This document shows positions 1-34,114 of a stretch of DNA of 64,000 nucleotides, in pieces. The notes below the pieces were generated by a model. That model was not told where the DNA came from, ran no database searches, and saw only the letters and a program-made list of their open reading frames with translations. This DNA is from Escherichia phage vB_EcoP_EP32B. A program made the position numbers and the translations under genes. The stretch lies in sequence record OR544955; one strand, written 5' to 3'. Each line of letters begins with the position of its first letter. Position 1 is the first letter of the stretch.

Positions 1-1028
1 TCACCACTCAAAATTCCTGTAGGCAGCGTAAGATTAATAGTTCCGGTTGTAGCGTTATTTGTGCCAAAAATAAGAACTTCTTCATTTGGACGAATATTTG
101 AATCCGCACGGATAATACGAAGACGTGATTTCTGATCGCCTTCCCATATACGCCATAAACTATTTGAAGCATCAAAAACAAAAAACGCGTCAGAGTCATT
201 TCTGCCTTCGGCAATATGAGTCCCGACTTCACCAATAGACGTTGTATCATCAAATGTTTTAACAATTGTATGATACAGTGGGTTTAATCTATCTAAATCG
301 ACTAGGCTGATTATATCACCATTGTTAGCATTACGTGGAAGTGTAATGTTGATTGGTGCTGCACTAGTAAAACGACGAACGATAAAATCATTTGCTTGTG
401 CTTGATATGGTGTCGCAGGTGTAACAGTGATTGATTCTTTACCATAATCGGTAATATACATCTGCCACAAACGATTACTAAACACAAACAATAGTTGTGA
501 ACGTGGGCGTGTCATTAAAACTGTGCGAACTTGTTCACCTCTAAAGTTTAAAATACTCTGCACAGACGCGTTAATCTGTACTTTAACTGTCCCGGTTCTT
601 CCACCAATATCAGCCAAAACAACAGTATCACCATCAACCGGCGCATTTGGCAACGTGAAAACCATATCATTGCCGGCCCCAGTGTTAACCGAAATCGAAT
701 CACCTGAAGAAAGTTGATAAGTCCCAGAAGCGACAGTTATCCATTGTGCATCAGTACGAACTGCACGCCATTGTAAAAGGTTAAATGCCCCGGAAGGAGA
801 CACGATATCATTTATTGCTTGATATAAACGGTTGTCGTAAAGAACAACAAATCCTTTGTTATATCCGCGCGTAGAATCATATACTTGAACGGTGTTTTCT
901 TGTACCAGGAAGTCAACGTTTACGCCATCAGTACCTACTGTACGGTCGGCTAATGCTACGTTAACAATCTTGTCGCCACCGGCGTCCAGACCGTCTTCGG
1001 CTCTGAACTTACGTTTGATGTCGGCCAT
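1..1028 (-). CDS. 34: Long tail fiber proximal subunit gp34, N-terminal ~340 codons (gene continues beyond window start)
   Basis: Minus-strand frame open from ATG (rc of 1026-1028) to the window edge; translation begins MADIKRKFRAEDGLDAGGDK... and continues ...PATPYQAQANDFIVRRFTSA..., matching T4 gp34 N-terminus from memory. Missing from ORF track because no stop lies inside the window. Late promoter 30 nt upstream. Confidence 0.8.
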   Translation of the reverse strand, partial: MADIKRKFRAEDGLDAGGDKIVNVALADRTVGTDGVNVDFLVQENTVQVYDSTRGYNKGFVVLYDNRLYQAINDIVSPSGAFNLLQWRAVRTDAQWITVASGTYQLSSGDSISVNTGAGNDMVFTLPNAPVDGDTVVLADIGGRTGTVKVQINASVQSILNFRGEQVRTVLMTRPRSQLLFVFSNRLWQMYITDYGKESITVTPATPYQAQANDFIVRRFTSAAPINITLPRNANNGDIISLVDLDRLNPLYHTIVKTFDDTTSIGEVGTHIAEGRNDSDAFFVFDASNSLWRIWEGDQKSRLRIIRADSNIRPNEEVLIFGTNNATTGTINLTLPTGILSG

Positions 1029-1058
1029 TCGTTTTTCCTTTATTGTTTCAATAATACT

Positions 1059-1066
1059 TATTTATA
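1059..1066 (-). promoter_or_regulatory. Late promoter (TATAAATA) for gene 34
   Basis: Plus-strand TATTTATA = minus-strand TATAAATA, ~30 nt upstream of gene 34 ATG. Confidence 0.7.
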
Positions 1067-1069
1067 CCA

Positions 1070-1100
1070 GTTTACGCTTTCAAATGAGTATGTTACTATA
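1070..1100 (+). promoter_or_regulatory. T4-type early promoter upstream of rnh
   Basis: GTTTAC at 1070-1075 and TACTAT-type -10 about 18 nt downstream. Confidence 0.6.
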
Positions 1101-1131
1101 GTCAAGTTGACTAACTGAACAAGAGGTTCAT

Positions 1132-2049
1132 ATGGATTTAGAAATGATGTTGGATGAAGATTACAAAGAAGGTATTGCACTTGCCGACTTTAGTAACATT
1201 GCATTAGCAGCTGCATTAAACAACTTTGAAGACGGTGATAAAATTACTGTTCCGATGGTTCGTCATGTAATCTTGAATTCAATTCGTAAAAACGTAGTGA
1301 TGTTCCGTAAGCAAGGCTATACAAAATTTGTATTGTGTATGGATAATGCTACTTCAGGTTATTGGCGTCGTGACTTTGCTTACTATTACAAGAAAAATCG
1401 TAAAACCGATCGTGAAGCTTCAAAGTGGGATTGGGAAGGATATTTTACTGCTCTCCGTCAAGTTGTTGATGAGATTAAGAAATACATGCCATACGTTGTA
1501 ATGGATATTGACAAGTATGAAGCAGATGACCATATCGGTGTATTAACTAAATATTTGTCATTAGCTGGTCATAAGGTATGTATTGTTGCATCAGATGGTG
1601 ACTTTACACAATTACACAAATATCCTAACGTTAAACAGTGGTCGCCACCACAGAAAAAATGGGTTAAAATTAAGAACGGTTCTGCTGAAATTGATTGCAT
1701 GACTAAAATTCTTAAAGGTGACCGTAAAGACGGCGTTGCATCTGTTCGAGTTCGTGGCGACTTTTGGTTTACCAGAGTTGATGGTGAACGAACTCCGAGC
1801 ATGAAAACAACGATTATTGAAGCAATTGCCAATGACCGTTCTCAAGCTGAAGTATTATTAAGTGCAGAAGAATATAAACGGTATCAAGAAAATTTGGTTC
1901 TCATTGATTTTGATTATATCCCTGATAATATTGCTTCAACCATTATAGAGTATTATAACTCATATAAACCACAACCTAAAGGCAAGATTTATTCATACTT
2001 TGTAAAATCTGGTCTTTCTAAATTAACAAGTGTAATTAATGAATTCTGA
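1132..2049 (+). CDS. rnh: RNase H / 5'-3' exonuclease (FEN family)
   Basis: 305-aa ORF, same length as T4 RNase H; position between gene 34 and dsbA; early promoter and RBS upstream. Confidence 0.88.
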   Translation: MDLEMMLDEDYKEGIALADFSNIALAAALNNFEDGDKITVPMVRHVILNSIRKNVVMFRKQGYTKFVLCMDNATSGYWRRDFAYYYKKNRKTDREASKWDWEGYFTALRQVVDEIKKYMPYVVMDIDKYEADDHIGVLTKYLSLAGHKVCIVASDGDFTQLHKYPNVKQWSPPQKKWVKIKNGSAEIDCMTKILKGDRKDGVASVRVRGDFWFTRVDGERTPSMKTTIIEAIANDRSQAEVLLSAEEYKRYQENLVLIDFDYIPDNIASTIIEYYNSYKPQPKGKIYSYFVKSGLSKLTSVINEF

Positions 2050-2056
2050 GGTAAAC

Positions 2057-2326
2057 ATGGCTAAGAAAGAAGCAGTTGAATTTAATCAAGATGTGCATGG
2101 TGAAGAACTGGCTAAACTAGTCAAGGAAGCTTCCGATAACAAACTTAAAATTTCTGGTTATAATGAACTGATTAAAGACATTCGTACTCGTGCTAAAGAA
2201 GAGCTTGGCGTCGATGGAAAAATGTTTAATCGTTTGTTAGCTCTTTATCATAAAGACGCTCGTGACCAATTTGAAGCTGAAAATGAAGAGGTAGTCGAGC
2301 TTTATGACACAGTTTTCACTAAGTGA
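2057..2326 (+). CDS. dsbA: dsDNA-binding protein DsbA (late transcription enhancer)
   Basis: 89-aa product from ATG at 2057 (MAKKEAVEF...), GAGG RBS upstream; T4 DsbA is 89 aa; synteny rnh-dsbA-33. Confidence 0.75.
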   Translation: MAKKEAVEFNQDVHGEELAKLVKEASDNKLKISGYNELIKDIRTRAKEELGVDGKMFNRLLALYHKDARDQFEAENEEVVELYDTVFTK

Positions 2327-2642
2327 TATTAAACCGGTTGATGAGGCCGGTTTATCTGAACAAGAATTAGCAGTAAAACACGATAAAGATGATATCGCTA
2401 AATTGCTTGACCGTCAAGAAAACGGATTCATTATCGAATCCATGGTTGAACAATTTGGTATGTCTTATTTAGAAGCAACAACTGCTTTCTTGGAAGAAAA
2501 TTCTATTCCAGAAACACAATTTGCTAAATTTATTCCTACAGGAATTGTTGAAAAAATTACAAGCGAAGCAATTGACGAAAACATGCTTCGCCCATCAGTT
2601 GCTCGTGGTGAAAAAACTAATACGCTAGATTTCTTATTATGA
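2304..2642 (+). CDS. 33: Late transcription co-activator gp33
   Basis: 112 aa, identical length to T4 gp33; synteny dsbA-33-59. Confidence 0.8.
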   Translation: MTQFSLSDIKPVDEAGLSEQELAVKHDKDDIAKLLDRQENGFIIESMVEQFGMSYLEATTAFLEENSIPETQFAKFIPTGIVEKITSEAIDENMLRPSVARGEKTNTLDFLL

Positions 2643-3292
2643 TTAAAATACGCATGCCTCCTGATGGAGAACGTTATATTAACGGAAAATCGGTATACAA
2701 ACTATACTTGATGTGCAAACAACATTTTAATGGTCGGTATGACGTAATCAAATATAACTGGTGCATGCGTGTTTCGGATAATGCGTATCAAAAACGCCGA
2801 GATAAATATTTCTTTGAAAAACTAGCAGAGAAATATAAATTGAAGGAACTCACCTTGATATTCATAAGCAACTTAGTTGCTAACCAAGACGCATGGATTG
2901 GTGAGATATCAGACGCTGATGCATTAGTTTTCTATAGGGAATATATTGGACGTCTCAAACAAGCTAAAGAGTCGTTTGCTGAAGATGTACGTAACATCTA
3001 CTATTTCAGTAAGAAAGTTGAAGTTAGTGCGCTTCAAGAGATATTTGATTATAATAATAAAGTTCAGTCGAGCTACATATTTAAATTGCTACAAAGCAAT
3101 ATAATTTCGTTTGAAACTTTCTTATTGTTGGACTCATTTTTGAATATTATAGATAAGCACGACGAACTCACCGATAACTTAGTCTGGCAAAATTATTCTA
3201 CCAAATTAAAGGCATATCGAAAAATACTTCAAATCGATGGAAATGCTGCTAAGAAATTGTTCATAGAAACAATCAAATCATGTAAGTATTAA
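2639..3292 (+). CDS. 59: Helicase loader gp59
   Basis: 217 aa, identical length to T4 gp59; immediately upstream of gene 32. Confidence 0.85.
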   Translation: MIKIRMPPDGERYINGKSVYKLYLMCKQHFNGRYDVIKYNWCMRVSDNAYQKRRDKYFFEKLAEKYKLKELTLIFISNLVANQDAWIGEISDADALVFYREYIGRLKQAKESFAEDVRNIYYFSKKVEVSALQEIFDYNNKVQSSYIFKLLQSNIISFETFLLLDSFLNIIDKHDELTDNLVWQNYSTKLKAYRKILQIDGNAAKKLFIETIKSCKY

Positions 3293-3321
3293 GCTTTATT
3301 TTATCTGTGTTAGAATTACCG

Positions 3322-3329
3322 TATAAATA
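3322..3329 (+). promoter_or_regulatory. Late promoter (TATAAATA) upstream of gene 32
   Basis: Exact TATAAATA ~80 nt upstream of gene 32 start; T4 gene 32 is known to have late promoters. Confidence 0.6.
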
Positions 3330-3369
3330 AATCATACCAGCTACGAGGTATAAGTGTCGTAGCAACCAA

Positions 3370-3408
3370 CTGTAAATAAATTAAATAATCTAAATAAAGG
3401 TAAATATA
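3370..3408 (+). promoter_or_regulatory. A/U-rich leader resembling the gene 32 translational operator
   Basis: Leader ...AAATAAATTAAATAATCTAAATAAAGGTAAATATA-ATG: repeated UUAAA/UAAAU elements directly 5' of the start codon, as in the T4 gp32 autoregulatory site. Confidence 0.45.
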
Positions 3409-4029
3409 ATGTTTAAACGTAAATCTACTGCTGACCTCGCTGCTCAAATGGCTAAACTGAACGGTAACAAAGGTTTCTCTTCAGAAGATAAAGGCGAATG
3501 GAAGCTGAAACTCGACGCATCCGGTAATGGTCAAGCGGTAATTCGTTTCCTGCCGGCAAAAACAGATGACGCCATCTACACACGGCGATTATGACTCTTG
3601 TCCTGTATGTCAGTACATTAGTAAAAATGACCTGTACAATACCAACAAAAATGAATATTCTCAACTGAAACGTAAAACTTCTTATTGGGCTAATATTCTG
3701 GTTGTTAAAGACCCTCAAGCTCCAGATAACGAAGGTAAAGTATTCAAATACCGTTTTGGTAAAAAGATTTGGGACAAAATCAATGCAATGATTGCAGTTG
3801 ATACTGAAATGGGTGAAACTCCTGTTGATGTAACTTGGTTCTTGGTACTGCCGCTCTGGGCGGTGCAGCAGCTGCCGCAGCTTCTGTTGCAGATAAAGTT
3901 GCTTCTGACCTTGACGATTTTGATAAAGACATGGAAGCCTTTAGTTCTGCAAAAACTGAAGATGACTTCATGAGCTCTACCTCATCCTCTGATGATGGCG
4001 ACCTCGATGACCTGTTAGCTGGTCTATAA
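3409..4029 (+). pseudogene. 32: ssDNA-binding protein gene 32, interrupted by two frame-breaking lesions (about 621 bp versus ~906 bp expected)
   Basis: Frame 1 [36 protein letters not shown]...AVIRFLP matches T4 gp32 N-terminus then stops; frame 2 resumes at ...[21 protein letters not shown]...GETPVDVT (zinc-binding region); frame 1 again supplies the acidic C-terminus ...[12 protein letters not shown]. About 20 residues before THGDYD and most of the core after DVT are absent. Confidence 0.8.
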
Positions 4030-4035
4030 TAAATC

Positions 4036-4058
4036 GGGAGACTTCGGTCTCCCTTTTG
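4036..4058 (+). terminator. Intrinsic terminator after gene 32
   Basis: Perfect hairpin GGGAGAC-TTCG-GTCTCCC followed by TTTTG. Confidence 0.8.
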
Positions 4059-4084
4059 AGTATCTGTAAATTGCCAAAAAAGTT

Positions 4085-4114
4085 GTTTACTTCTTCCCTG
4101 GATGTATTAGTATA
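4085..4114 (+). promoter_or_regulatory. T4-type early promoter
   Basis: GTTTAC at 4085-4090, -10-like TATTAG/TAGTAT ~17 nt downstream. Confidence 0.5.
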
Positions 4115-4142
4115 GACATATCAACAACATGAGGAAATCAAA

Positions 4143-4535
4143 ATGGAAATCGGAAAATCTTATATCATTAACCCTTTATTTAAAGACGACTTTGTTCAAG
4201 AAGCACCACATAATAACGCTAAGATGTTAAAACTGATTGAACTCCATGGGCCTAGTTTTGTTGTAAACGGAATGGAACCTGATTATGATAGCGATACGTC
4301 AAACGTAGTAAGTGTAACTATGGAAGATGGTACTGTATGTTCTGCCGGTGGTGAAATTGAAACTTATTTTGAGATTTATCCTGACGAGTTCAAATACTTT
4401 ACTGAGGTAGATTTAGTAAAACCTCAACCTACTAACGAAGGTATAACTTTAGGTGTAACAAAAATCCATTGTATCGTAGATGAAACCAACGTCGACGAAA
4501 TCATCAAACTTTTGCAAAAAACTTTTAAAAAGTAG
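4143..4535 (+). CDS. Hypothetical early protein (frd.x position)
   Basis: 130-aa ORF on the sense strand of the early array; early promoter at 4085-4114. Confidence 0.5.
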   Translation: MEIGKSYIINPLFKDDFVQEAPHNNAKMLKLIELHGPSFVVNGMEPDYDSDTSNVVSVTMEDGTVCSAGGEIETYFEIYPDEFKYFTEVDLVKPQPTNEGITLGVTKIHCIVDETNVDEIIKLLQKTFKK

Positions 4536-4598
4536 TGTATAACAAGATAGGGCTATGTTATAGTAGTCCTATCAAATAAAAGTGAAGAGGAGAATAAA

Positions 4599-6196
<1,598 letters not shown>

Positions 6197-6451
6197 ATGA
6201 TTTTACGTTTTATTAATTCATATGGCACCACAATTTTTGAAATGAAAAATCCAAGTGAACTGGATATCCCTTCACCGAATAGTGAAATCACAGTTAAAGG
6301 TGAACGATTCATTTGCTATTCACACGAACGAATTTATGAATATCGTGAATTTTGTGGTGGTTACGGTATAGAAAAAGAACCGTTGGTTTATTTCGATATC
6401 ACAGTCTTGACACCTAAAGAATACGAAGAAATTATTGCTGAGGATAATTAA
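6197..6451 (+). CDS. Hypothetical early protein (nrdA.x position)
   Basis: 84-aa ORF between td and nrdA on the sense strand. Confidence 0.5.
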   Translation: MILRFINSYGTTIFEMKNPSELDIPSPNSEITVKGERFICYSHERIYEYREFCGGYGIEKEPLVYFDITVLTPKEYEEIIAEDN

Positions 6452-6538
6452 CGCTTCAGTTTAAAAGTGTATAATAAATTAACGGGATAAATACTATCCC
6501 GTTTGGAGTAATGTCTATCAACCTATACCGAGGACTAT

Positions 6539-8794
6539 ATGCAAGTAACTAAGAGCAGTGGTGTATCCCAAAATTTTGATGCACAGAAAATTATTCAAGT
6601 CTTAACTTGGCAATGTGAAGGAACACAAATTGACCCATATGAATTGTACGAAGAAATTAAGACCCATCTTGTCGATGGGATGAGCACCAAAGATATTCAG
6701 AAGATTTGTATTAAAGTTGCGGCTAACTCGATTTCTGTCGAAGAACCTGATTATCAGTATGTCGCCGCTAAAGGATTAATGTTTGCACTTCGTAAAGATG
6801 TATACGGACAGTTTGAACCACCTGCTTTTATCGACCATATTTCTTACTGTGTTAATGAAGGCAAATACGACCCCGAGCTGTTGTCTCAATATTCAGCAGA
6901 AGAAATCATTTATCTTGATTCTCGGATTAAACACGAACGAGATTTTGACCTGACTTATGCTGGTGCTATGCAGCTTAAAGAAAAATATCTAGTTAAAGAT
7001 AAAACAACTGGGAAGATTTATGAAACTCCACAGTTTGCTATCATGGCTATTGGCATGGCCTTACATCAAGACGAAACTCGTGACCGTTTGAAACATATTA
7101 TTCGTTTTTATGATGCCGTTTCTACTCATCAAGTTTCATTGCCTACCCCAATTATGGCAGGTGCTCGTACTCCGACTCGCCAGTTCTCTAGTTGTGTAGT
7201 TATTGAAGCCGGTGATTCGTTAAAATCTATTAACAAAACTTCAGCATCAATTATTGAATATATTTCTAAACGAGCTGGTATTGGTATCAACGTTGGTATG
7301 CTTCGTGCAGAAGGTTCTAAGATCGGTATGGGTGAAGTTCGACATACGGGTGTTATTCCATTCTGGAAACATTTCCAAACTGCAGTAAAATCTTGTTCTC
7401 AAGGTGGTATTCGTGGTGGTGCTGCTACAGCGTATTATCCGATGTGGCACTTAGAAGTAGAGAACCTATTAGTTCTGAAAAATAACAAAGGCGTGGATGA
7501 AAACCGTATTCGACATATGGACTACGGAATTCAGATTAATGACCTTATGATGGAACGCCTTGGTAAAAATGATTATATTACTTTATTTAGCCCTCACGAA
7601 ATGTCAGGCGAACTATACTACTCGTTCTTTGAAGATCAAGATAAATTCCGTGAGCTTTATGAGAAAGCTGAAAAAGACCCGACAATCAGAAAGAAAAGAA
7701 TCAAAGCACTAGAACTCTTTGAATTGTTCATGACTGAACGTTCTGGCACTGCTCGAATTTATCCACAATTCGTTGATAACACGAATAACTACACTCCGTT
7801 TATTCGTGAAAAAGCTCCAATTCGTCAGAGTAACTTATGTTGTGAAATCGCTATTCCGACTAATGATGTGAATGGCCCTGATGCTGAAATTGGTTTATGC
7901 ACATTATCTGCTTTTGTATTAGATAAATTTGATTGGCAAGACCAAGATAAAATTAATGAACTTGCTGAAGTACAAGTACGTGCACTTGATAACCTGTTAG
8001 ACTATCAAGATTATCCGGTTCCAGAAGCTTTAAAAGCCAAAAAGCGTCGAAACCTCGGTGTCGGTGTGACGAACTATGCCGCATGGTTAGCTTCTAACTT
8101 TGCTTCATATGAAGACGCTAACGATTTGACTCATGAATTGTTTGAGAGATTGCAATATGGCCTTATCAAAGCTTCAATCAAACTCGCCAAAGAAAAAGGA
8201 CCTTGCGAGTATTATTCAGACACTAAATGGTCTCGAGGCGAATTACCTATCGACTGGTACAATAAAAAGATTGACCAAATCGCAGCCCCGAACTACGTCT
8301 GTGACTGGGAAGAACTTCGAGCTGAACTCAAAGAACATGGAATTCGTAACTCAACATTGTCTGCACTTATGCCATGTGAATCAAGCAGCCAGGTTTCTAA
8401 CTCTACAAACGGGATTGAACCGCCGCGTGGTCCAGTAAGTATTAAAGAATCTAAAGAAGGCAACTTCCGTCAGGTTGTTCCTAATATAGAACATAACATG
8501 AGTCTTTACGACTACGCGTGGAAACTTGCTAAGAAAGGTAATAAACCTTATTTGACCCAAGTTGCTATCATGTTGAAATGGGTGTGCCAATCTGCTTCTG
8601 CTAATACTTACTATGACCCTGCGGTATTTGAGAAAGGTAAAGTACCAATGTCAGTAATGCTTGACGATCTACTTTACTTCTGGTACTTTGGTGGAAAAAA
8701 TCTCTACTATCATAACACTCGTGATGGGTCAGGTACAGATGACTATGAATTAGAAACACCTAAAGCTGAAGATTGTTCTGCTTGTAAGCTTTAA
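6539..8794 (+). CDS. nrdA: Ribonucleoside-diphosphate reductase large subunit
   Basis: 751 aa (T4 754); RNR active-site region ...RQSNLCCEIAIP... and C-terminal Cys pair (CSACKL). Confidence 0.93.
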   Translation: MQVTKSSGVSQNFDAQKIIQVLTWQCEGTQIDPYELYEEIKTHLVDGMSTKDIQKICIKVAANSISVEEPDYQYVAAKGLMFALRKDVYGQFEPPAFIDHISYCVNEGKYDPELLSQYSAEEIIYLDSRIKHERDFDLTYAGAMQLKEKYLVKDKTTGKIYETPQFAIMAIGMALHQDETRDRLKHIIRFYDAVSTHQVSLPTPIMAGARTPTRQFSSCVVIEAGDSLKSINKTSASIIEYISKRAGIGINVGMLRAEGSKIGMGEVRHTGVIPFWKHFQTAVKSCSQGGIRGGAATAYYPMWHLEVENLLVLKNNKGVDENRIRHMDYGIQINDLMMERLGKNDYITLFSPHEMSGELYYSFFEDQDKFRELYEKAEKDPTIRKKRIKALELFELFMTERSGTARIYPQFVDNTNNYTPFIREKAPIRQSNLCCEIAIPTNDVNGPDAEIGLCTLSAFVLDKFDWQDQDKINELAEVQVRALDNLLDYQDYPVPEALKAKKRRNLGVGVTNYAAWLASNFASYEDANDLTHELFERLQYGLIKASIKLAKEKGPCEYYSDTKWSRGELPIDWYNKKIDQIAAPNYVCDWEELRAELKEHGIRNSTLSALMPCESSSQVSNSTNGIEPPRGPVSIKESKEGNFRQVVPNIEHNMSLYDYAWKLAKKGNKPYLTQVAIMLKWVCQSASANTYYDPAVFEKGKVPMSVMLDDLLYFWYFGGKNLYYHNTRDGSGTDDYELETPKAEDCSACKL

Positions 8795-8847
8795 GACTTT
8801 TTATTATAATTTACTCATGGATGAGTTAAACTAAGTGAGAAAATATA

Positions 8848-9944
8848 ATGAGTACAGTTTTTAACACACAACAAGTCGATGTTTTGAATGAACCGATGTT
8901 CTTTGGTTCTGGTCTTGGTATTGCGCGTTATGATATTCAACGACATAAAGTTTTTGAAGAACTTATAGAAAAATCCTTGTCGTTTTTTTGGCGCCCAGAA
9001 GAGGTAAACTTGATGTTGGACTCTGCGCAGTTCAATAAGCTTCCTCAGTTCCAACAAGACATCTTTACAAACAATCTTAAGTATCAATCATTATTAGATT
9101 CTATCCAAGGCAGGGCCCCATCTGCGGTACTTATGGCACTGATTTCTGACCCTTCATTAGATACGTGGGTTGCAACATGGACATTCAGTGAAACTATTCA
9201 CTCTCGTTCGTATACTCATATTATGCGAAATCTTTATACCGATCCATCCAAAGTATTTGATGAGATTGTATTAGACGAAGCAATCATGAAACGAGCTGAA
9301 TCAATAGGTAAATATTACGATGATGTTCTAGACAAGACTCGTCGTTGGGAAAATGCAAGCGTGATTTAATGAAGTCTCTTTATCTCTGTTTGCATGTAAT
9401 TAACGCCTTGGAAGCTATTCGTTTTTACGTATCATTTGCATGTACTTTCAACTTCCATAAAAACATGGAAATTATGGAAGGTAATGCAAAGATTATGAAG
9501 TTCATTGCTCGTGACGAACAACTCCACCTCAAGGGTACTCAGTACATTATCCGTCAACTTCAATCTGGTACTGATGGTGATGAGTGGGTTCAAATTGCTA
9601 AAGAATGTGAACAGGAAGCAGTTGACATTTTTATGGAAGTAAATAGACAAGAGAAGGAATGGGCTGCACATCTCTTTAAAGACGGTACATGCCCGGGTAT
9701 CAATACACAGAGTATGTGTGCTTTTGTTGATTACTTGACTGTGTCTCGTATGAAACAGTGTGGTTTGCCATGTCCAATTACTGATGCTCCGACCAAGCAT
9801 CCGTATCCTTGGATTCGTGAATATCTGAACTCTGATTTAGTTCAAGCAGCTCCTCAGGAAGTTGAAATCAGTTCTTATCTTGTCGCACAAATTGATAATG
9901 ATGTAGACCAAAATGTAATCAATTCATACAAAAAATATTTCTAA
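8848..9944 (+). pseudogene. nrdB: Ribonucleotide reductase small subunit gene, intronless, frame-shifted near 9345-9370
   Basis: ORF 8848..9369 (173 aa, ...TWTFSETIHSRSYTHI...) and ORF 9345..9944 (LYLCLHVINALEAIRFYVSFAC...EGNAKIMKFIARDEQLHL...) together cover R2 iron-centre motifs but lie in different frames. Confidence 0.85.
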
Positions 9945-9948
9945 GGAC

Positions 9949-9970
9949 GGGACTTCGGTCCCACTTTATT
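9949..9970 (+). terminator. Intrinsic terminator after nrdB
   Basis: GGGAC-TTCG-GTCCC hairpin followed by T-rich run. Confidence 0.65.
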
Positions 9971-10381
9971 ATGAAAGATATTGCCGCCGAATATTCCTTT
10001 ATTAAATATACAGAATTGGAGCTATTAGAAGATGCAACAATTAAAACAGTTGATGTCCCTAATAAGAAAAATGTCATATACGCTATTGCTATAGATGACG
10101 AACTTGTGTATATTGGTAAAACCAAGAATTTAAAGAAACGCATTAACTATTATCGAACAGCCATAAATCGAAAAGACCAGACTTCAGATTCAAGAAAATC
10201 ACTTATGATTTTGGATGCCTTAATGCAAGGCAAAAAGGTTGAATTCTGGGCCCGCCAATGTTTTGACCTTTCAGTCACCAACGAACTTGGTTCAATGACC
10301 ATCGCAACAATGGACCTTGAAGAACCGCTTTTTATCAAAAAGTTCAACCCGCCTTGGAATATCCAACATAAGAAAAAGTAG
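9971..10381 (+). CDS. denA: Endonuclease II (GIY-YIG family)
   Basis: 136 aa, same as T4 EndoII; GIY-YIG-like motif VIYAIAIDDELVYIGKTKNLKKRINYY; synteny nrdB-denA-rnlA. Confidence 0.8.
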   Translation: MKDIAAEYSFIKYTELELLEDATIKTVDVPNKKNVIYAIAIDDELVYIGKTKNLKKRINYYRTAINRKDQTSDSRKSLMILDALMQGKKVEFWARQCFDLSVTNELGSMTIATMDLEEPLFIKKFNPPWNIQHKKK

Positions 10382-10410
10382 TTTACATACCACAAGGATT
10401 GTGGTACAAT
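10381..10410 (+). promoter_or_regulatory. T4-type early promoter upstream of rnlA
   Basis: GTTTAC 10381-10386, TGGTACAAT extended -10 at 10402-10410. Confidence 0.6.
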
Positions 10411-10427
10411 TTAAAAAAACTAACTGA

Positions 10428-11561
<1,134 letters not shown>

Positions 11562-11563
11562 TG

Positions 11564-11593
11564 GTTTACAAACACCAAGGATGGTGTTACTAT
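11564..11593 (+). promoter_or_regulatory. T4-type early promoter
   Basis: GTTTAC 11564-11569; TGTTACTAT -10. Confidence 0.55.
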
Positions 11594-11623
11594 GGTTTTT
11601 ATCAATAACACGAGGAGAAAATT

Positions 11624-12124
11624 ATGAATATGCAATTGATTACTAACGATATGGTTGTGGCAGCATTTGGTGATTCTACAGATGGAATCCGGGTCTTTAA
11701 GAAAGGCCGTGCAGTTGGTTATCTTACGGACCTACGTACTACACTAGCCAAAAATGCTAAAAAGAAGTTAAAGCAAAAGGAATATTCAACACGTTACACT
11801 GAAGAGAAACGCGAAGCGATGCCGGAAGCAGTTAATGCCATGGTAGAATTTCTTCAAAACAATTTGACTAAATATGACGCTAATGTGTTCATTAATATTA
11901 GTCAACCAAACGTACATATCGCAGGTATAAAATTCTACATTATTTGCGACCCTCTTACCGACAAATTCAACCGTCTCGGAATCTCAAGTCCATATCATAC
12001 AGCAGAAGAGTTGTGTGTATTGTTTGAATCATACAAAATCCAGTGCGATGGTTTGAAAACCGTTCTTATCAATGGATTATCCCGAGATGAAATCATTGGG
12101 ATTATTAAAACATGCTTAAAGTAA
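11624..12124 (+). CDS. Hypothetical early protein at the position and size of T4 Alc
   Basis: 166 aa (T4 Alc 167 aa) directly after rnlA; identification by synteny and size only. Confidence 0.45.
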   Translation: MNMQLITNDMVVAAFGDSTDGIRVFKKGRAVGYLTDLRTTLAKNAKKKLKQKEYSTRYTEEKREAMPEAVNAMVEFLQNNLTKYDANVFINISQPNVHIAGIKFYIICDPLTDKFNRLGISSPYHTAEELCVLFESYKIQCDGLKTVLINGLSRDEIIGIIKTCLK

Positions 12125-12158
12125 ATCCAACAATAAAGTCGATTCGCTGAATACTGAA

Positions 12159-12410
12159 TTGGCTTCTGTTAAAGAGACTGCTAAAAACAATGCTAAAGTA
12201 TTAGACGACTTCAAGGTTCAATATCAGTCAATCGAAGAAATGACTTATAAGAACCGTGTTTTAGTTGACCAACTTAAGGCCGAAAATGAAAAGCTCCGTC
12301 AGGATTCGAAGAAGAAGAACGTGGTGGCAAGTAAACCGGGATTGGTCGAAAAACAAATCAACAGGTCCTTCGATTCCTTTGCAGAAGACCTCAGGAAGCT
12401 CTCAGAATGA
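12159..12410 (+). CDS. Hypothetical protein (pseT.x region)
   Basis: 83-aa ORF, charged/coiled-coil-like; start codon uncertain. Confidence 0.4.
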   Translation: MASVKETAKNNAKVLDDFKVQYQSIEEMTYKNRVLVDQLKAENEKLRQDSKKKNVVASKPGLVEKQINRSFDSFAEDLRKLSE

Positions 12411-12697
12411 TTAAATTAATCGCAGTTGTATTATCTATTGGCATTTTGGCTGGATGTGCCCAGGATGTGCCCTTAAGCCCTAAAGAAACTTTACATCCGC
12501 CATGGCCTGAATCTATTGTTGAATATAACCAGAAATGGCAAGTAAAGGTTATTGATGGTAATCCGTGGGTTGGAATGCCATTTGAAGACTCTCAAGAATT
12601 TCGTATCTGGTTAAACGACGTAAAAAGATATGTACATGACCAGAAGACTATGTTATGTTATTATCGTAGTGGTTTAAAAGAGGAAAAATGCCAATGA
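12407..12697 (+). CDS. Putative lipoprotein (signal peptide with LAGC lipobox)
   Basis: N-terminus MIKLIAVVLSIGILAGCAQD: hydrophobic core followed by L-A-G-C. Confidence 0.5.
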   Translation: MIKLIAVVLSIGILAGCAQDVPLSPKETLHPPWPESIVEYNQKWQVKVIDGNPWVGMPFEDSQEFRIWLNDVKRYVHDQKTMLCYYRSGLKEEKCQ

Positions 12698-12912
12698 CTA
12701 AAGAACAGCATGAACACATTAAAGGGCTTATCTATGAATCTGAAATGGCGGCTATGATTTATGGGCGCCAGATTCAACGATTAGAATCTTTGCCTCCGAC
12801 TAATGACCGATTGTTAGTTCAGTCTCGTGCTAATCTGAAAAATGAATATCAGAATAAGTGGGCAGTAGCGACTAAAGCTCTTCACGAGTATATTGAATCT
12901 TTAGTAAAATAG
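12688..12912 (+). CDS. Hypothetical protein
   Basis: 74-aa ORF overlapping the previous stop; sense strand of early array. Confidence 0.45.
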   Translation: MPMTKEQHEHIKGLIYESEMAAMIYGRQIQRLESLPPTNDRLLVQSRANLKNEYQNKWAVATKALHEYIESLVK

Positions 12913-12941
12913 TTTACAAACTCTCAGGAGCAGAGTATAAT
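12912..12941 (+). promoter_or_regulatory. T4-type early promoter
   Basis: GTTTAC 12912-12917; TATAAT 12936-12941. Confidence 0.65.
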
Positions 12942-12969
12942 GCTCCTATGGATAATTGAGGAAATCTAA

Positions 12970-13270
12970 ATGAAAACATTACTAGAGAATTACATCAAAC
13001 GGTCTGATGAGTATATTGATATCTGTCGTGGAACGTCGTCACTTGTCAATTATGACAAAGATGCGGCAAAGGCACTAGATGAAGCAGGTAAAGCTCTTCG
13101 TAAAGCTGCTAAAGAAAAAGGGTTGGATTTGCAACAACTCAAAAGTCATATGATTAAATTTATTTCTTCAAACGTTAGAAGTACGTCAATTAATAAAAAC
13201 GTTGCTGAAATTAATAAAGACCGGCGCGAGCATAACATTCGTATTCTTGAAATTTTCTTAGGAATAAATA

Positions 13271-13293
<23 letters not shown>
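12970..13293 (+). CDS. Hypothetical protein
   Basis: 107-aa ORF downstream of early promoter 12912-12941. Confidence 0.5.
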
Positions 13294-14357
<1,064 letters not shown>

Positions 14358-14358
<1 letters not shown>

Positions 14359-14549
14359 TGAAACGATTATATGAAGTGATTGAGGTCATCGAACAGCATA
14401 AAGAATATTTGTTTGTAGTATGGCCTTTAGTAAATGGACGGTTCGGTATTGATGTGCTGGACTATGAACATGAAGAATGGTTGGACGGCGGTATATTTGA
14501 TAACGTCGACCAGGCAATTGAATGGTTAAATGAAAACTATGTACGATAA
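14358..14549 (+). CDS. Hypothetical protein (cd.x region)
   Basis: 63-aa ORF, start overlaps pseT stop. Confidence 0.45.
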
Positions 14550-14754
14550 ACATCATGAAATCGAAGATGAAGCATACAAAATGCTTCGTAAACTAGTGGG
14601 ACTTAATATGAGTCCTACATTAATCAACAAACTCGCAGGAATTCGTAATGATCTGAATACTCGTTACAAAGGCGAATATCATGTAGAGTTTGTTCCTGTA
14701 GGTGAACCGACCGAGCGATTTGTTGTTCGAGTTAAAGTAAATACTGTACACTGA
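14530..14754 (+). CDS. Hypothetical protein (cd.x region)
   Basis: 74-aa ORF in sense array. Confidence 0.45.
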   Translation: MKTMYDKHHEIEDEAYKMLRKLVGLNMSPTLINKLAGIRNDLNTRYKGEYHVEFVPVGEPTERFVVRVKVNTVH

Positions 14755-14761
14755 GGTAATT

Positions 14762-15037
14762 ATGTTCCCAACTTATTCTGAAATTGTAAAGGTAGTCTTC
14801 AGTCAGATTATTGCTAATAATATGTTTGAAGTGCTTGATAATGCAGCCGAACTCAGAGTTCATGCTCAACTAACTCATGTACTCAATGCTTTGCTCCCAG
14901 ACCAAGTAGATTCTATTGCTATTACTCTTCTCCCTGGGTCTGCACACGTCATCGTGGTATTTGATCTTGACGGCGATTTAGTTATCCAGTGCGATATCAA
15001 TTTCGGTACACAAAAAATTGAATGCAAAGCAATTTAA
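14762..15037 (+). CDS. Hypothetical protein (cd.x region)
   Basis: 91-aa ORF in sense array. Confidence 0.45.
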   Translation: MFPTYSEIVKVVFSQIIANNMFEVLDNAAELRVHAQLTHVLNALLPDQVDSIAITLLPGSAHVIVVFDLDGDLVIQCDINFGTQKIECKAI

Positions 15038-15039
15038 TG

Positions 15040-15069
15040 GTTTACAACATGGTAGAGTTGTGATACTAT
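15040..15069 (+). promoter_or_regulatory. T4-type early promoter
   Basis: GTTTAC 15040-15045; TGATACTAT -10. Confidence 0.6.
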
Positions 15070-15098
15070 AACTCTACCAACACAATGAGGAAACAGGA

Positions 15099-15335
15099 AT
15101 GCTAAGTGAAAACCCAATTACAGTGCACGAATTTCAGATTAAAGTAAAAGAATTTGCTCAAGCACTCATAAATAAAGTGTCTGAACGTTTCAAGGATGCA
15201 ACATTACGAGTTATTCAAGAATCTCCACGTTCTTTTCTCATAATTGTTAATCCTAAAGATGGCGACCAAATTACTAATCTTAAATTAGGCAGTGATGGTC
15301 TTGTTGAAGCAACTCGAGTATATGGAACACTATAA
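15099..15335 (+). CDS. Hypothetical protein (cd.x region)
   Basis: 78-aa ORF after early promoter 15040-15069 with GAGGA RBS. Confidence 0.5.
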   Translation: MLSENPITVHEFQIKVKEFAQALINKVSERFKDATLRVIQESPRSFLIIVNPKDGDQITNLKLGSDGLVEATRVYGTL

Positions 15336-15455
15336 TGAGAGCTATCTCATTACTATCGAGAATGGTCATAAATCTGAGCACTACCAACTTAGCCTGTCTA
15401 ATCCGGTTAAAGGTATTGTTGAATCAGAATCTGTTTATATCTCCTAAGGATTGTT

Positions 15456-16448
15456 ATGTTACCTGTCGTCGGAAAACTTATTTCTCCAAAAGAACTGGCT
15501 GAGATTATTCCTTTGTCGGAAGCTTACGCATCACAAGTGGCTTCTCATCGCGAACAAGTTAATTCGATTATGAACGGTGAAGACCCACGCAAACTTATTG
15601 TTGTAGGTCCTTGTTCAATTCATGACCCTATTGCTGCTGTTGAATACGGCAAACGTCTGGCTGAACTTCAAACTCGTCTTCCTAATGTTCTGTTAGTGAT
15701 GCGCGTTTATTTTGAAAAGCCTCGAACTACCGTAGGTTGGAAAGGTCTTGTAAATGATCCATATCTTGACGGAAGTTTTGATATGAACCACGGTCTTATA
15801 GTTGCACGAACATTGTGTCGTAAACTTCTACGTATGGGACTTCCATTAGCAACTGAAGTATTAGACCCATTCACGATTAAGTATCTTTCTGGTATTTTCT
15901 CATGGGTTGCTATTGGCGCCCGTACGACTGAAAGTCAGACACATCGTGAAATTGCTTCAGGTCTACCGATGTGCGTAGGCTTCAAGAACGCAACCAATGG
16001 TTCTATTAAAGTAGCTACAGACGCGATGTATAGTGCCGCCTGGCCTCATCGGTATATGGGTATGGACGTCGATGGTACTGTAGGCATTGTTGAAGCTGAA
16101 GGTAATCAGAATACGCATATCGTATTGCGTGGCGGGACCAACGGCCCGAACTATCATTCTTCTGATATTCAAGAAGCTTCTAACAAAGCAAGGGCAGTAG
16201 GTCTGAATCATTATGTAATGGTTGACTGTAGCCATGCAAACGCTGATGGACATTATAGCAATCAAATTGGTATTGGTAAAAATTTAGCAGCTAATGATTT
16301 GGTCAAAGGAATTATGATAGAATCATTCCTACATGAAGGAAATCAAAAAATTTCTGATAATATGTCCTATGGCGTTTCCATTACCGATGCGTGCATCAGT
16401 TGGGAACAAACTAAAGAGCTGTTAACTTATATTAATAAGGTTCAATAA
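15456..16448 (+). CDS. 3-deoxy-D-arabino-heptulosonate-7-phosphate (DAHP) synthase, class I (AroF/AroG-like)
   Basis: 330 aa with motifs VVGPCSIHD, MRVYFEKPRTTVGWKG, AIGARTTESQTHRE, PMCVGFKN, MVDCSHAN, IMIESFLHEGNQ, YGVSITDACISWE; colinear with E. coli AroF/AroG along the whole length. Confidence 0.9.
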   Translation: MLPVVGKLISPKELAEIIPLSEAYASQVASHREQVNSIMNGEDPRKLIVVGPCSIHDPIAAVEYGKRLAELQTRLPNVLLVMRVYFEKPRTTVGWKGLVNDPYLDGSFDMNHGLIVARTLCRKLLRMGLPLATEVLDPFTIKYLSGIFSWVAIGARTTESQTHREIASGLPMCVGFKNATNGSIKVATDAMYSAAWPHRYMGMDVDGTVGIVEAEGNQNTHIVLRGGTNGPNYHSSDIQEASNKARAVGLNHYVMVDCSHANADGHYSNQIGIGKNLAANDLVKGIMIESFLHEGNQKISDNMSYGVSITDACISWEQTKELLTYINKVQ

Positions 16449-17029
16449 TGAAAGCTAGCACATACCTTCAGATTGCATATCTGATTTCTCAAGAATCAAA
16501 ATGTTGTTCATGGAAAGTTGGCGCAGTCATTGAAAAAGATGGGCGCATTATCTCTACTGGGTATAACGGTAGCCCGGCCGGTGGTGTTAACTGTTGTGAA
16601 CATGCATCTGAAAATGGTTGGTTGAAGAATAAACCAATCCCAGTCATCGTTGCTGGGCATAAAGAAGGCACTACAGCATTTGGACGGGCCGATAATTTTG
16701 TTTTGGCTAAAGAACATCGGGCTGCTCATAGTGCATGGTCTGCCAATAACGAAATCCATGCGGAACTGAATGCAATTTTGTTTGCAGCTCGTAAAGGTAA
16801 TTCTATTGAAGGTGCTACGTTGTATACGACACTTTCTCCATGTCCTGATTGCACTAAAGCTATTACACAGTCAGGTATTAAAAAGGTTGTATATGCAGAA
16901 TTATATGACCGATCTCCTGAAAATTGGGCAGACATTCTTAAACAAGCTGGTATTGAAGTAATTCAGTACTCTCGTAATAATCTTCGTTCTCTGAATTGGG
17001 AACAAATCCGAAACTTTTGTGGTGAATAA
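16448..17029 (+). CDS. cd: dCMP deaminase
   Basis: 193 aa (same as T4 Cd); zinc-ligand motifs HAELNAI and SPCPDC; start overlaps DAHP synthase stop. Confidence 0.9.
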   Translation: MKASTYLQIAYLISQESKCCSWKVGAVIEKDGRIISTGYNGSPAGGVNCCEHASENGWLKNKPIPVIVAGHKEGTTAFGRADNFVLAKEHRAAHSAWSANNEIHAELNAILFAARKGNSIEGATLYTTLSPCPDCTKAITQSGIKKVVYAELYDRSPENWADILKQAGIEVIQYSRNNLRSLNWEQIRNFCGE

Positions 17030-17327
17030 TATGATTTTAACTGAACAAGAAACTATGGTTCTTCGTGAACGTATTAAAACTATTCTGTCTGTAGGCGTTC
17101 ATTGTGTTGTATTTGAAAAGGCTAACGGTGATGTTCGTACGATGTTTGCCTCCCGTGATGAACTTGAAGTCAAATACGAAAATAACAATCCGGCAACAGA
17201 AGTTCGTTATGAACCTCGTGAATCAGTTCGAGCATTCGATACCAAGTTAGGCCAGTGGCGTTCTTTCCGCCTTGATAAAGTAATTTCGGTTGATGGTACT
17301 CCGGTAGAACGTTTGCTTCTTATGTAA
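17019..17327 (+). CDS. Hypothetical protein (31.x position)
   Basis: 102-aa ORF between cd and gene 31. Confidence 0.45.
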   Translation: MVNNMILTEQETMVLRERIKTILSVGVHCVVFEKANGDVRTMFASRDELEVKYENNNPATEVRYEPRESVRAFDTKLGQWRSFRLDKVISVDGTPVERLLLM

Positions 17328-17356
17328 TATGCTTTACGAATAGTATGGTATTATTA
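17327..17356 (+). promoter_or_regulatory. MotA-dependent middle promoter upstream of gene 31
   Basis: MotA box ATATGCTTTAC (TGCTTTA at 17330-17336) 12 nt upstream of TATTAT -10. Confidence 0.55.
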
Positions 17357-17384
17357 ATCTATCGTCAAACAACAAGGAAATAAG

Positions 17385-17717
17385 ATGTCTGAAGTACAAC
17401 TCCCAATTCGTGCTGTTGGTGAATATGTTATTCTGGTTTCTGAACCCGCTCAAGCAGGTGATGAAGAAGTTACCGAATCAGGTCTTGTGATTGGTAAACG
17501 TGTTCAAGGTGAAGTTCCTGAACTATGTGTAGTTCATTCTGTAGGTCCTGATGTTCCTGAAGGTTTTGTTGAAGTCGGTGATTTGACTCCACTACCAGTT
17601 GGACAAATTCGAAATGTTCCACATCCATTTGTGGCTTTGGGACTTAAACAACCTAAAGAAATTAAACAGAAATTCGTAACATGCCACTATAAAGCTATTC
17701 CGTGTCTTTATAAGTGA
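17385..17717 (+). CDS. 31: Head-assembly co-chaperonin (GroES analogue) gp31
   Basis: 110 aa (T4 gp31 111 aa); N-terminus [21 protein letters not shown]; MotA-type middle promoter upstream. Confidence 0.85.
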
Positions 17718-17841
17718 TATAAATAACTATATGAAGAGAACACTCTTCTAAGCGGTAGCCTACAACTGAGAGACTTGTCGAAAGAAGGTGAAATTCAGAC
17801 GAACGTGGCTACTAAATATTATCTCGAATTGAGAATTTAAA

Positions 17842-18000
17842 ATGATTAAACAATTACAACACGCTCTTGAACTGCAACGAAACGCATGGAATAACGGTCA
17901 CGAAAACTACGGCGCGTCGATTGATGTTGAAGCCGAAGCTCTGGAAATCCTCTATCACGCGTCAGAAAAAGGTTATCTGTCTAAGTCGTGGTTGGCATGA
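17842..18000 (+). CDS. Small hypothetical protein (52 aa) at the position of rIII
   Basis: ATG at 17842, product MIKQLQHALELQRNAWNNGHENYGASIDVEAEALEILYHASEKGYLSKSWLA; below the 60-aa track cutoff; assignment by synteny only. Confidence 0.35.
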   Translation: MIKQLQHALELQRNAWNNGHENYGASIDVEAEALEILYHASEKGYLSKSWLA

Positions 18001-18111
18001 TGACGGGTTTATGGTTATCCTGTCGTTAAATATCCAAAACCTATGTTCCCCTTGAGGGCTTGAGCAGGCAATGTCAATAAGTCCTGCATTTTCATTTAAA
18101 GAGAATTTATA

Positions 18112-18291
18112 ATGGCAAAACAAGCTAAAGCAAAGAAAGCAGTTGAAAAGAAAGTTGATGGTACCTCTAAACGCGCTGGATACAAGCGTGGGTCGAACTC
18201 TCGTATTAATCAAACAGTTGAGAAGATCATGCGCAGAGCACGTGCAGTTCTTCGAGATGATGCTTCTCGTTTTGGAAAGGTTGTTGCATAA
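18112..18291 (+). CDS. Small basic hypothetical protein (59 aa)
   Basis: ATG at 18112, product MAKQAKAKKAVEKKVDGTSKRAGYKRGS...; followed by hairpin terminator 18297-18319; below track cutoff. Confidence 0.4.
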   Translation: MAKQAKAKKAVEKKVDGTSKRAGYKRGSNSRINQTVEKIMRRARAVLRDDASRFGKVVA

Positions 18292-18296
18292 TTTTA

Positions 18297-18319
18297 GGGA
18301 GACTTCGGTCTCCCTTTTG
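18297..18319 (+). terminator. Intrinsic terminator (identical copy of the gene 32 terminator)
   Basis: GGGAGACTTCGGTCTCCC + TTTTG, identical to 4036-4058. Confidence 0.8.
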
Positions 18320-18350
18320 TGCGTTTAGGGCAGAAAAAGTTTAAAAAGAT

Positions 18351-18380
18351 GTTTACTCTCCTGTAGGATGTGTTACTATA
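18351..18380 (+). promoter_or_regulatory. T4-type early promoter
   Basis: GTTTAC 18351-18356; TGTTACTATAGAC -10 region. Confidence 0.6.
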
Positions 18381-18420
18381 GACTTGTACCACCTAATCAA
18401 TAAAACAACCGGAGAACAAA

Positions 18421-18789
18421 ATGAAAATCAATCTGAACTCATACATCAAATGTAAAGACCATGATGGTTATAAAGCTATCGAAATTAAAGAATTCCAGTG
18501 GATGTTATACAAAGAGCAATTTGAGTTCGTAGGTTGTATGACCCCTGAAGGTCCTTCTGATGATTTCTCTTGGAAAATTGTGTTAGCAAACTTTTTCACA
18601 GGTGACACATACGAATTAAAAACTATTATTACCGGTAAAATTCGTTCAGAAACATATGTTGACGAAGAAACTGGTTACTCTGAAGATGTTACATGGTATC
18701 AAAATGGACGAATTACAGCAGATAACCTGATCGAAAAAATGAAAGCCAAAGGTGTTTTAAATTTAGACAATTGGATTAAAGTTGCATAA
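18421..18789 (+). CDS. Hypothetical protein (30.x cluster)
   Basis: 122-aa ORF with its own early promoter (18351-18380) and RBS GGAG. Confidence 0.55.
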   Translation: MKINLNSYIKCKDHDGYKAIEIKEFQWMLYKEQFEFVGCMTPEGPSDDFSWKIVLANFFTGDTYELKTIITGKIRSETYVDEETGYSEDVTWYQNGRITADNLIEKMKAKGVLNLDNWIKVA

Positions 18790-18793
18790 AACA

Positions 18794-18823
18794 GTTTACT
18801 TTGGTACAGGTTATGTTATTATA
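18794..18823 (+). promoter_or_regulatory. T4-type early promoter (near-duplicate of 18351)
   Basis: GTTTAC 18794-18799; TGTTATTATAGAC -10 region. Confidence 0.6.
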
Positions 18824-18863
18824 GACCTGTACCAACAAACAACTTAAACATCTGGAGAATAAA

Positions 18864-19229
18864 ATGAACTACACCAACTTCGAACGTAAATATGTTTCTA
18901 ACGGTATTGCTGGTTCTTCTGAAGTTATTTGCTTATGGAAACACGAAAACGGTACAGTTTGTGAAATCGAACAGTGCATGACTCCTAATTACGTTTATAT
19001 GCGATTTGAAAATGGTATCACGGTTTCAATCACGGTGGAAGGTTCAAATTTTAAAATTGCATTAGATGATGATTTCCGTCAGCGTGATTTAGGTACTCAT
19101 CCTTGCTGGAATGGTGTTAATCGTAAACTTCTGGTTAAAACTTGGATTCGTCATATCCTGAGCAACCGAGCTAAACCTGAACATCTCGAAGCAATCTTTG
19201 ATGTAGTTCTTAACGAATTTGATATCTAA
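18864..19229 (+). CDS. Hypothetical protein (30.x cluster)
   Basis: 121-aa ORF with near-duplicate promoter/leader (18794-18823). Confidence 0.55.
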   Translation: MNYTNFERKYVSNGIAGSSEVICLWKHENGTVCEIEQCMTPNYVYMRFENGITVSITVEGSNFKIALDDDFRQRDLGTHPCWNGVNRKLLVKTWIRHILSNRAKPEHLEAIFDVVLNEFDI

Positions 19230-19264
19230 ATTAATTGGGAGCTTCGGCTCCCACTGAGGAAATT

Positions 19265-19879
19265 ATGTTTAAAGTTAATACTTTTTATAAAATGAATTTT
19301 AAAAATGGGGATATTACTCCACGCCTTAAAAACATGTTCTCATATGACCTTATTGAGCCTTTTGAAGTTTTAGAAGTTACTGATGCCGGCTCAGTTTGTG
19401 AAATTAGAACTTCTGAAGGTAAAATTTATCAGGCCGGTGTTGGTAAATTCAGTAATTGTTTTACTTTAATATTCTCGACCGATTTAGATGAGCATTTTAT
19501 TGAATGTCCTAACCCTAAGGTCTATGAAGTTCCACAGCAAGAAACTAAGAAAAATGGCCCACACAAATATACGAAGGTTGAAACTCCTCACGGCGTGATG
19601 TGGCGTCATAACTCTCCTTTCGGAAGTAAAGGAACATTTGCTCAACCGTCTAAACCGTATGACGATGAAAAATATGTAGTAGTCCTTTTATCTGAACAGG
19701 GTACTCAAGACCGTGGATGTCAACGAAGTGGTTTACTAAGTGAACTTGAAGCTCATAACCAAGCACGTGAATTCGTTGAGAAAAATCCTGGTTCTGAAGC
19801 TCTAGTCATGAAAGCAATTACTCAATATATCACTGCTCAACCTGTTGTTCATCCGGTAGAAATTAATTTCATTAAGTAG
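19265..19879 (+). CDS. Hypothetical protein (30.x cluster)
   Basis: ATG at 19265 with GAGGA RBS (track ORF starts earlier in-frame at 19235); 204 aa. Confidence 0.5.
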   Translation: MFKVNTFYKMNFKNGDITPRLKNMFSYDLIEPFEVLEVTDAGSVCEIRTSEGKIYQAGVGKFSNCFTLIFSTDLDEHFIECPNPKVYEVPQQETKKNGPHKYTKVETPHGVMWRHNSPFGSKGTFAQPSKPYDDEKYVVVLLSEQGTQDRGCQRSGLLSELEAHNQAREFVEKNPGSEALVMKAITQYITAQPVVHPVEINFIK

Positions 19880-19909
19880 TTTACATCCAAGGACGGATTA
19901 GAGTATAAT
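19879..19909 (+). promoter_or_regulatory. T4-type early promoter
   Basis: GTTTAC 19879-19884; TATAAT 19904-19909. Confidence 0.6.
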
Positions 19910-19933
19910 GATTTCTTTAGTAAGTGGAAAAAT

Positions 19934-20131
19934 ATGAAATTTTTAATAGCACAAACAGTCCAATTAAAAGGTGTTGGAATTCCTGGGGTGATTTTTAAAG
20001 TTCTCCCTGAATTTAAAACCGCCGCTGGAATTATCAATGAAGCGTATGCTGTTCAATGGGTTGATTGGACTTCTGACATACGTATGGGTAAAGAGTTATC
20101 TCCTATTAAAGGGTTGAAACATGTTGAATAA
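19934..20131 (+). CDS. Hypothetical small protein
   Basis: 65-aa ORF after early promoter 19879-19909. Confidence 0.45.
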   Translation: MKFLIAQTVQLKGVGIPGVIFKVLPEFKTAAGIINEAYAVQWVDWTSDIRMGKELSPIKGLKHVE

Positions 20132-20294
20132 ATTAATCCAGAAATTGTTTGGTACGGAAATGATTGAAGTTACTTATCGTGTAACCGACGTTTTTCCTCG
20201 ATTAAACTACCTAAAAATGACAGAAATTTATCTATCGAAGACCGTATACCTGGATACGGACATTGGGCTGATGTTGAAATTATAAGTGTTAAAG

Positions 20295-21565: not shown

Positions 21566-21574
21566 GGGTTAATT

Positions 21575-23386: not shown

Positions 23387-23402
23387 CTAAAAGGAAAACA
23401 CT

Positions 23403-34112: not shown

Positions 34113-34114
34113 AA

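Follow-up and report, generated by a model that had tools for sequence, protein, structure and literature searches.

Losses in gene 32 and other genes of an RB69-like Mosigvirus genome record probably reflect reconstruction on a typing phage 3-like reference

The two gaps that break gene 32 in this record of an RB69-like Mosigvirus (assigned by megablast against 50,697 phage records) are best explained as neither a property of the phage nor a peculiarity of gene 32, and they are very probably an artefact of rebuilding the genome on the coordinates of a reference resembling E. coli O157 typing phage 3 (tp3, KP869101). This reading rests on the combination of an origin shared with tp3, differences that are pure losses, losses that track divergence from tp3 and stop at mismatches, indifference of the losses to the reading frame, and essential genes hit in a lineage otherwise under strong purifying selection. 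The window referred to throughout is the whole stretch of DNA analysed, 64,000 nucleotides in length, and the coordinates of all features are collected in Table 1.

Within the window, gene 32 measures 621 nt versus 900 nt in its relatives (alignment with tp3 and RB69), matching the figures of about 620 and about 900 bp given in a preliminary description of this DNA, and no uninterrupted open reading frame (ORF) of about 300 codons was found at the locus. The sequence and its ORF list give three overlapping ORF pieces, located at 3409..3594 in frame 1 (the N-terminus, starting with MFKRKST), at 3566..3973 in frame 2 (carrying GETPVDVT) and at 3835..4029 again in frame 1 (the acidic C-terminus). 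These are exactly the three segments in alternating frames that had been described, and the two frame switches reported with them are placed by the alignment with tp3 and RB69 at junctions 1 and 2 (Table 1). Read in its starting frame, gene 32 contains 15 stops, the first as codon 62, and the 5' piece as written is translated into 61 aa before the stop at 3592-3594. Alignment to relatives, which had been proposed as the way to size the gaps, gives 68 nt and 214 nt; as these add up to 282 nt, or 94 codons, the two outer pieces are in the same frame and the middle piece alone is shifted.

Deletion 1 starts at the third position of codon 55 and takes in the first position of codon 78, which refines the earlier estimate of about 20 residues lost before the zinc motif to residues 56-77, and deletion 2 starts at the third position of codon 166 and includes all of codon 237, so that the core sequence reported missing after GETPVDVT corresponds to residues 167-237 (71 core residues). 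The zinc ligands of gp32 are His64, Cys77, Cys87 and Cys90 (PMC8549804), and two of the four are left in the window: His64 and Cys77 are lost with deletion 1, whereas Cys87 and Cys90 are kept in the middle piece, together with part of the ssDNA-binding core. The zinc-binding segment had been called recognisable, which holds for the Cys87/Cys90 region in its shifted frame, but does not extend to the deleted His64 and Cys77. The Pfam family PF08804 is matched at profile positions 50-139 of 208 only, in the frame-2 fragment, versus 1-207 for the tp3 protein, and no full-length match was obtained for the window gp32. With this truncated match, two zinc ligands and 71 core residues missing, the sequence as written is without a functional gp32, as the preliminary description had concluded. 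The 3' piece has one codon more than tp3; this extra codon is shared by the IMG/VR contig L006, which is 97.4% identical to the window and has an intact gene 32, and with only this level of identity L006 was rejected as the closest intact relative.

Table 1. Coordinates of gene 32, its signals and the losses across the window of an RB69-like Mosigvirus (a slash marks a junction between two adjacent bases; sizes are of the sequence absent)
Feature	Position	Strand	Description
T4-type late promoter consensus TATAAATA	3322..3329	+	intact, 5' of gene 32; read directly
gene 32	3409..4029	+	between gp59 and frd.2
gene 32 5' piece	3409..3572	+	codons 1-55 (to position 2), frame 1; tblastn residues 1-56
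junction 1	3572/3573	+	68 nt absent = tp3 3573-3640; blunt, 0 microhomology
gene 32 middle piece	3573..3837	+	codon 78 position 2 to codon 166 position 2, now frame 2; tblastn and Pfam
junction 2	3837/3838	+	214 nt absent = tp3 3906-4119; blunt
gene 32 3' piece	3838..4029	+	codons 238 to stop, frame 1 again; acidic C-terminal domain
intrinsic terminator hairpin GGGAGACTTCGGTCTCCC then TTTT	4036..4057	+	intact; hairpin itself 4036-4053
frd.1-like ORF / next ORF	4761/4762	+	321 nt absent = tp3 5042-5362; fuses frd.1-like ORF to end of next ORF
td (5353..6196)	5865/5866	+	17 nt absent, codons 172-177 (QWYQRS), frame broken
nrdB	9355/9356	+	79 nt absent, frame broken
ECTP3_00175 homologue	12128/12129	+	58 nt absent, frame broken
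ECTP3_00190 homologue	17951/17952	+	247 nt absent versus tp3; 3' end lost
ECTP3_00196 homologue	20197/20198	+	34 nt absent, frame broken
DNA ligase gp30	22124/22125	+	73 nt absent, frame broken
ECTP3_00201 homologue	23289/23290	+	102 nt absent, in frame
alt, near 3' end	25447/25448	+	15 nt absent, in frame
ECTP3_00213 homologue	33840/33841	+	50 nt absent, frame broken
major capsid protein gp23	42448/42449	-	34 nt absent, frame broken; first stop codon 186 of 521
prohead protease gp21	44234/44235	-	28 nt absent, frame broken
neck protein gp14	53222/53223	-	36 nt absent, in frame

The surroundings of gene 32 are undisturbed: the order gp59 - gene 32 - frd.2 is conserved, the gene has its own promoter and terminator (Table 1), and the ribosome-binding site is intact. 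An Rfam scan of the window (1..64000), which took in the stretch before 3409 with the gene 32 translational operator, gave no family at the gathering score. An intact second copy of gene 32, which the preliminary description had named as an observation that would overturn it, was not found within these 64 kb, nor were the deleted segments found relocated elsewhere in the window.

What is retained of gene 32 closely resembles gp32 of RB69 and tp3 (AAP76145, AKE45043; structures 2A1K, 2ATQ). The gene is in the same place, and DNA identity is 96-98% over what has been kept, which includes the N-terminal cooperativity segment, the Cys87/Cys90 region, the acidic C-terminus, the promoter and the terminator; however, RB69 and tp3 have a single ORF of 299 residues, whereas the window lacks 282 nt and has its middle piece out of frame. 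The closest solved structures to the window gp32 are 8GME, 2ATQ, 2A1K and 1GPC. T4 gp32 (1GPC, 8GME) belongs to the same family and has the same domain plan, with His64, Cys77, Cys87 and Cys90 aligning residue for residue, and its gene is about 80% identical in DNA to that of RB69 (PMC535899); the T4 gene is intact, while the window copy is without two ligands and much of the core. The T4 gene 60 hop likewise involves coding pieces in different frames on one mRNA, but there the bypass skips extra nucleotides to give a complete protein, whereas the window gene 32 is without conserved coding sequence. Translational bypass or frameshifting was thus rejected, as conserved coding sequence is missing and not interrupted, and with this sequence absent no reading of the mRNA restores residues 56-77 and 167-237.

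None of the best 30 of 152 related phage records (each covering at least 80% of the stretch) shares the gene 32 gaps, all 30 matching in three pieces, and 801 window bases correspond to approximately 1081 bases in the relatives listed. The sequence across junction 1 was not found in viral or bacterial-genome collections, and that across junction 2 was not found in viral or metagenome collections; this absence from the collections searched fits an artefact, although it falls short of proof. A search of the viral collection for other alleles of the 68-nt stretch with the exact flanks of the window also gave none. Exact look-ups with two window proteins, the 135-aa fragment and intact gp59, gave no match, and the best phage record for the window is 98% and not 100% identical. 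The window is collinear from its first base with tp3 at approximately 98% identity: base 1 aligns to base 1 of KP869101.1, genes located before the first gap have the same coordinates in both, and the first 3572 nt form one ungapped block which is 98.4% identical to tp3. The origin of KP869101 is an arbitrary contig end from the de novo Velvet assembly of a typing-phage set (PMC4429339), a set in which no record corresponds to the window. With 98% identity the window represents a different phage from tp3, yet it has the same arbitrary origin, and this common origin suggests that KP869101 served as the basis for building, or for reorienting, the source genome.

The comparison with tp3 also makes clear that gene 32 is one of many affected genes. 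The deletions specific to the window number 15, with sizes of 15, 17, 28, 34, 34, 36, 50, 58, 68, 73, 79, 102, 214, 247 and 321 nt, and all differences of this kind are losses, with no insertion of at least 2 nt in the window versus tp3. From the 84 reference genes mapped, 69 are intact at identical length, three are in-frame variants and 12 are broken, the latter being gp32, td, nrdB, gp30, gp23, gp21, the fused frd.1-like pair and four small ORFs. Re-measuring the gaps against the relatives ST0 (MF044457) and UGJNEcP1 (OV754623) gives the same set, with one change in size, from 247 to 142 nt. Each loss is one clean block with nothing inserted in its place (the window contributes 0 nt at every alignment break), and junction microhomology is 0 nt in 12/15, 1 nt in 2/15 and 2 nt in 1/15. 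Deletion lengths are divisible by three in 4/15 cases, near the one third expected at random, which argues that no selection filter has acted on them. The preliminary description implied a phage crippled in gene 32, and this is not supported, with losses of the same kind found in 14 other genes, blind to the reading frame and tracking patches divergent from tp3.

The natural relatives differ from tp3 in another way. ST0 and UGJNEcP1, both intact and of similar divergence, show block substitutions (247 for 248 nt, 3 for 108 nt), 5-10 small insertions and, among these differences, a 671-nt insertion of a homing-endonuclease gene, and no conserved gene is broken by any of them. In UGJNEcP1 an annotated homing endonuclease is located between gp33 and gp59 (L008 2739-3422); the window, tp3 and ST0 do not have it. 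The frd.1-like gene and frd are separated by a small ORF (tp3 5112-5359) that is a swappable Mosigvirus cassette, with 247 versus 248 nt that cannot be aligned between tp3 and ST0/UGJNEcP1, and it lies inside the 321-nt gap.

The positions of the losses follow the divergence between tp3 and its relatives. In comparisons of tp3 with ST0 or UGJNEcP1, 10/15 deletions are on patches which are 24-78% different, versus a background of 5.4%, and in a permutation test of 20,000 runs the observed mean was reached by one run and the observed median by none. Between tp3 and ST0, identity falls to 58% over the nrdB gap and to 74% over the 34-nt gap at tp3 21200, the patch at the 102-nt gap is 74.5% identical in UGJNEcP1, and the region of the 321-nt gap is mostly unalignable between tp3 and relatives. 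At gene 32 deletion 2, tp3 and ST0/UGJNEcP1 are 75% identical with flanks of 95-97%, and in a five-way alignment the edges of this deletion are the first and last bases that differ between the tp3/RB69-type and ST0-type alleles. Over all 15 losses, 13/30 edge bases are polymorphic, a strong excess over the background rate (P = 1.7e-9) but only a marginal one over the rate within the patches (P = 0.06). The remaining 5/15 gaps, i.e. gene 32 deletion 1 and the 58-nt, ligase, alt and gp21 gaps, are on stretches only 0-11% different in the two relatives (ST0 and UGJNEcP1), with the stretch of gene 32 deletion 1 being 91% identical in both; for these five we assume that the sequenced phage has a more divergent allele than those seen so far.

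Mosigvirus gene 32 itself comes in two allele classes, a tp3/RB69-type and an ST0/UGJNEcP1/IMG-VR-type, which differ over a sharply bounded 214-nt patch encoding residues 167-237 (tp3 3906-4119, equivalent to L007 4012-4224 and L008 4682-4894). The patch is a clear recombination mosaic within the ssDNA-binding core.

A reconstruction in tp3-like coordinates would account for these observations if, for example, reads or contigs were mapped by local alignment to such a reference and the consensus omitted uncovered positions. A mosaic patch too divergent to align would cause the aligned sequence to end at the first mismatch and to restart after the last one, and the unaligned patch would then vanish from the output while small variants were still called. 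We infer both the software step that removed the patches and zero coverage at the gaps. This corresponds to the known behaviour of reference bias in a mapping-based consensus, which has the same common origin, pure losses, lack of large insertions, divergent patches with edges at mismatches and called small variants. An assembly artefact had been named in the preliminary description as an outcome that would refute it; the evidence favours such an artefact, while the gaps themselves are truly in the sequence. Gene 32 of the real phage is most likely normal, at about 300 codons, with residues 167-237 encoded by a divergent allele and residues 56-77 probably by a variant.

A close variant of this explanation, likewise an artefact, starts from two co-existing Mosigvirus strains, where highly divergent patches gave unresolved bubbles in the de novo assembly graph, the short branches of these bubbles were dropped, and tp3 guided the order in which the flanking contigs were joined, leaving the patch out. 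This predicts loss exactly from the first to the last differing base, pure losses and their association with mosaic patches, and the common origin is expected if contigs were ordered on tp3. It does not explain the total lack of insertions versus tp3 in long intact contigs, as natural relatives have several, and five of the deletions are in stretches with little known polymorphism, and we therefore regard it as unlikely.

Much less credible is that the deletions are real and that the record represents a defective, multiply deleted Mosigvirus, originating for instance in a mixed infection in which heteroduplex patches were excised during recombination. The gaps are unambiguous in the sequence and lie on patches with two allele classes, which in a mixed infection would pair as large heteroduplexes full of mismatches, and the equivalent of the I-TevI cut site falls within the td gap. 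Against this, one molecule would combine frame-broken copies of gp32, gp23, gp30 and gp21. All four are indispensable for T4-type phages (nrdB is dispensable), and with all of them broken in one molecule neither DNA replication nor head building would be supported, so the intact or in-frame essential genes needed for propagation are not there. The genome also shows no sign of decay. The 1089 substitutions versus tp3 have a Ts/Tv of 3.4, 83% are at codon position 3, and 881 are synonymous versus 160 nonsynonymous (85% synonymous), a pattern that looks natural and indicates a healthy lineage under strong purifying selection. Downstream of the frameshifts, when read in the original frame, there are 54 synonymous versus 7 nonsynonymous changes, which means that the gaps postdate essentially all divergence of the window lineage. 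T4 deletions typically occur between short direct repeats; such repeats were not found at the junctions, where 12/15 are without microhomology, and the deletion lengths are without frame bias. A non-viable genome of this kind, derived from a mixed infection with two alleles by heteroduplex excision and kept only by complementation from a co-infecting phage, is more improbable still.

Homing-endonuclease or intron scars were rejected as a general cause of the gaps: in nrdB, 85-160 nt separate the gap from the T4 intron site, and no such link exists at the remaining gaps. The td gap covers CDS nt 514-530 and with it the equivalent of the I-TevI cut, with the T4 intron site (nt 549/550) following 23-25 nt downstream of that cut, but this is probably a coincidence since these 17 nt themselves form a small divergent patch, with 76% identity in relatives. 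Repeat-mediated collapse is not supported either, as no repeats are present at the junctions and the deleted segments are unrelated to one another in sequence, and neither is composition bias, with deleted segments of 24-48% GC versus 38% in the window and no pattern. The series of sizes that are multiples of 34 (34, 34, 68, 102) fails for the other sizes. Random alteration after assembly, be it file corruption or deliberate deletions unrelated to biology, would give blunt, frame-blind cuts without filler and with sizes spread over 15-321 nt, but is barely conceivable, as it would neither hit tp3-divergent patches (at most 1/20,000 permutations) nor start and end on polymorphic bases at the rate seen against background, and it leaves the absence of insertions versus tp3 unexplained.

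Taken at face value, the record describes a T4-type phage without gp32, major capsid protein, ligase and prohead protease, and its automatic annotation would yield a string of pseudogenes. It is unsuitable for comparisons of gene content or essentiality, and its value is mainly as a warning. Under the reconstruction on a tp3-like reference favoured here, the lost pieces mark mosaic patches where the phage probably differs most from typing phage 3, and the stretches that were dropped are likely to be the most distinctive parts of its genome.
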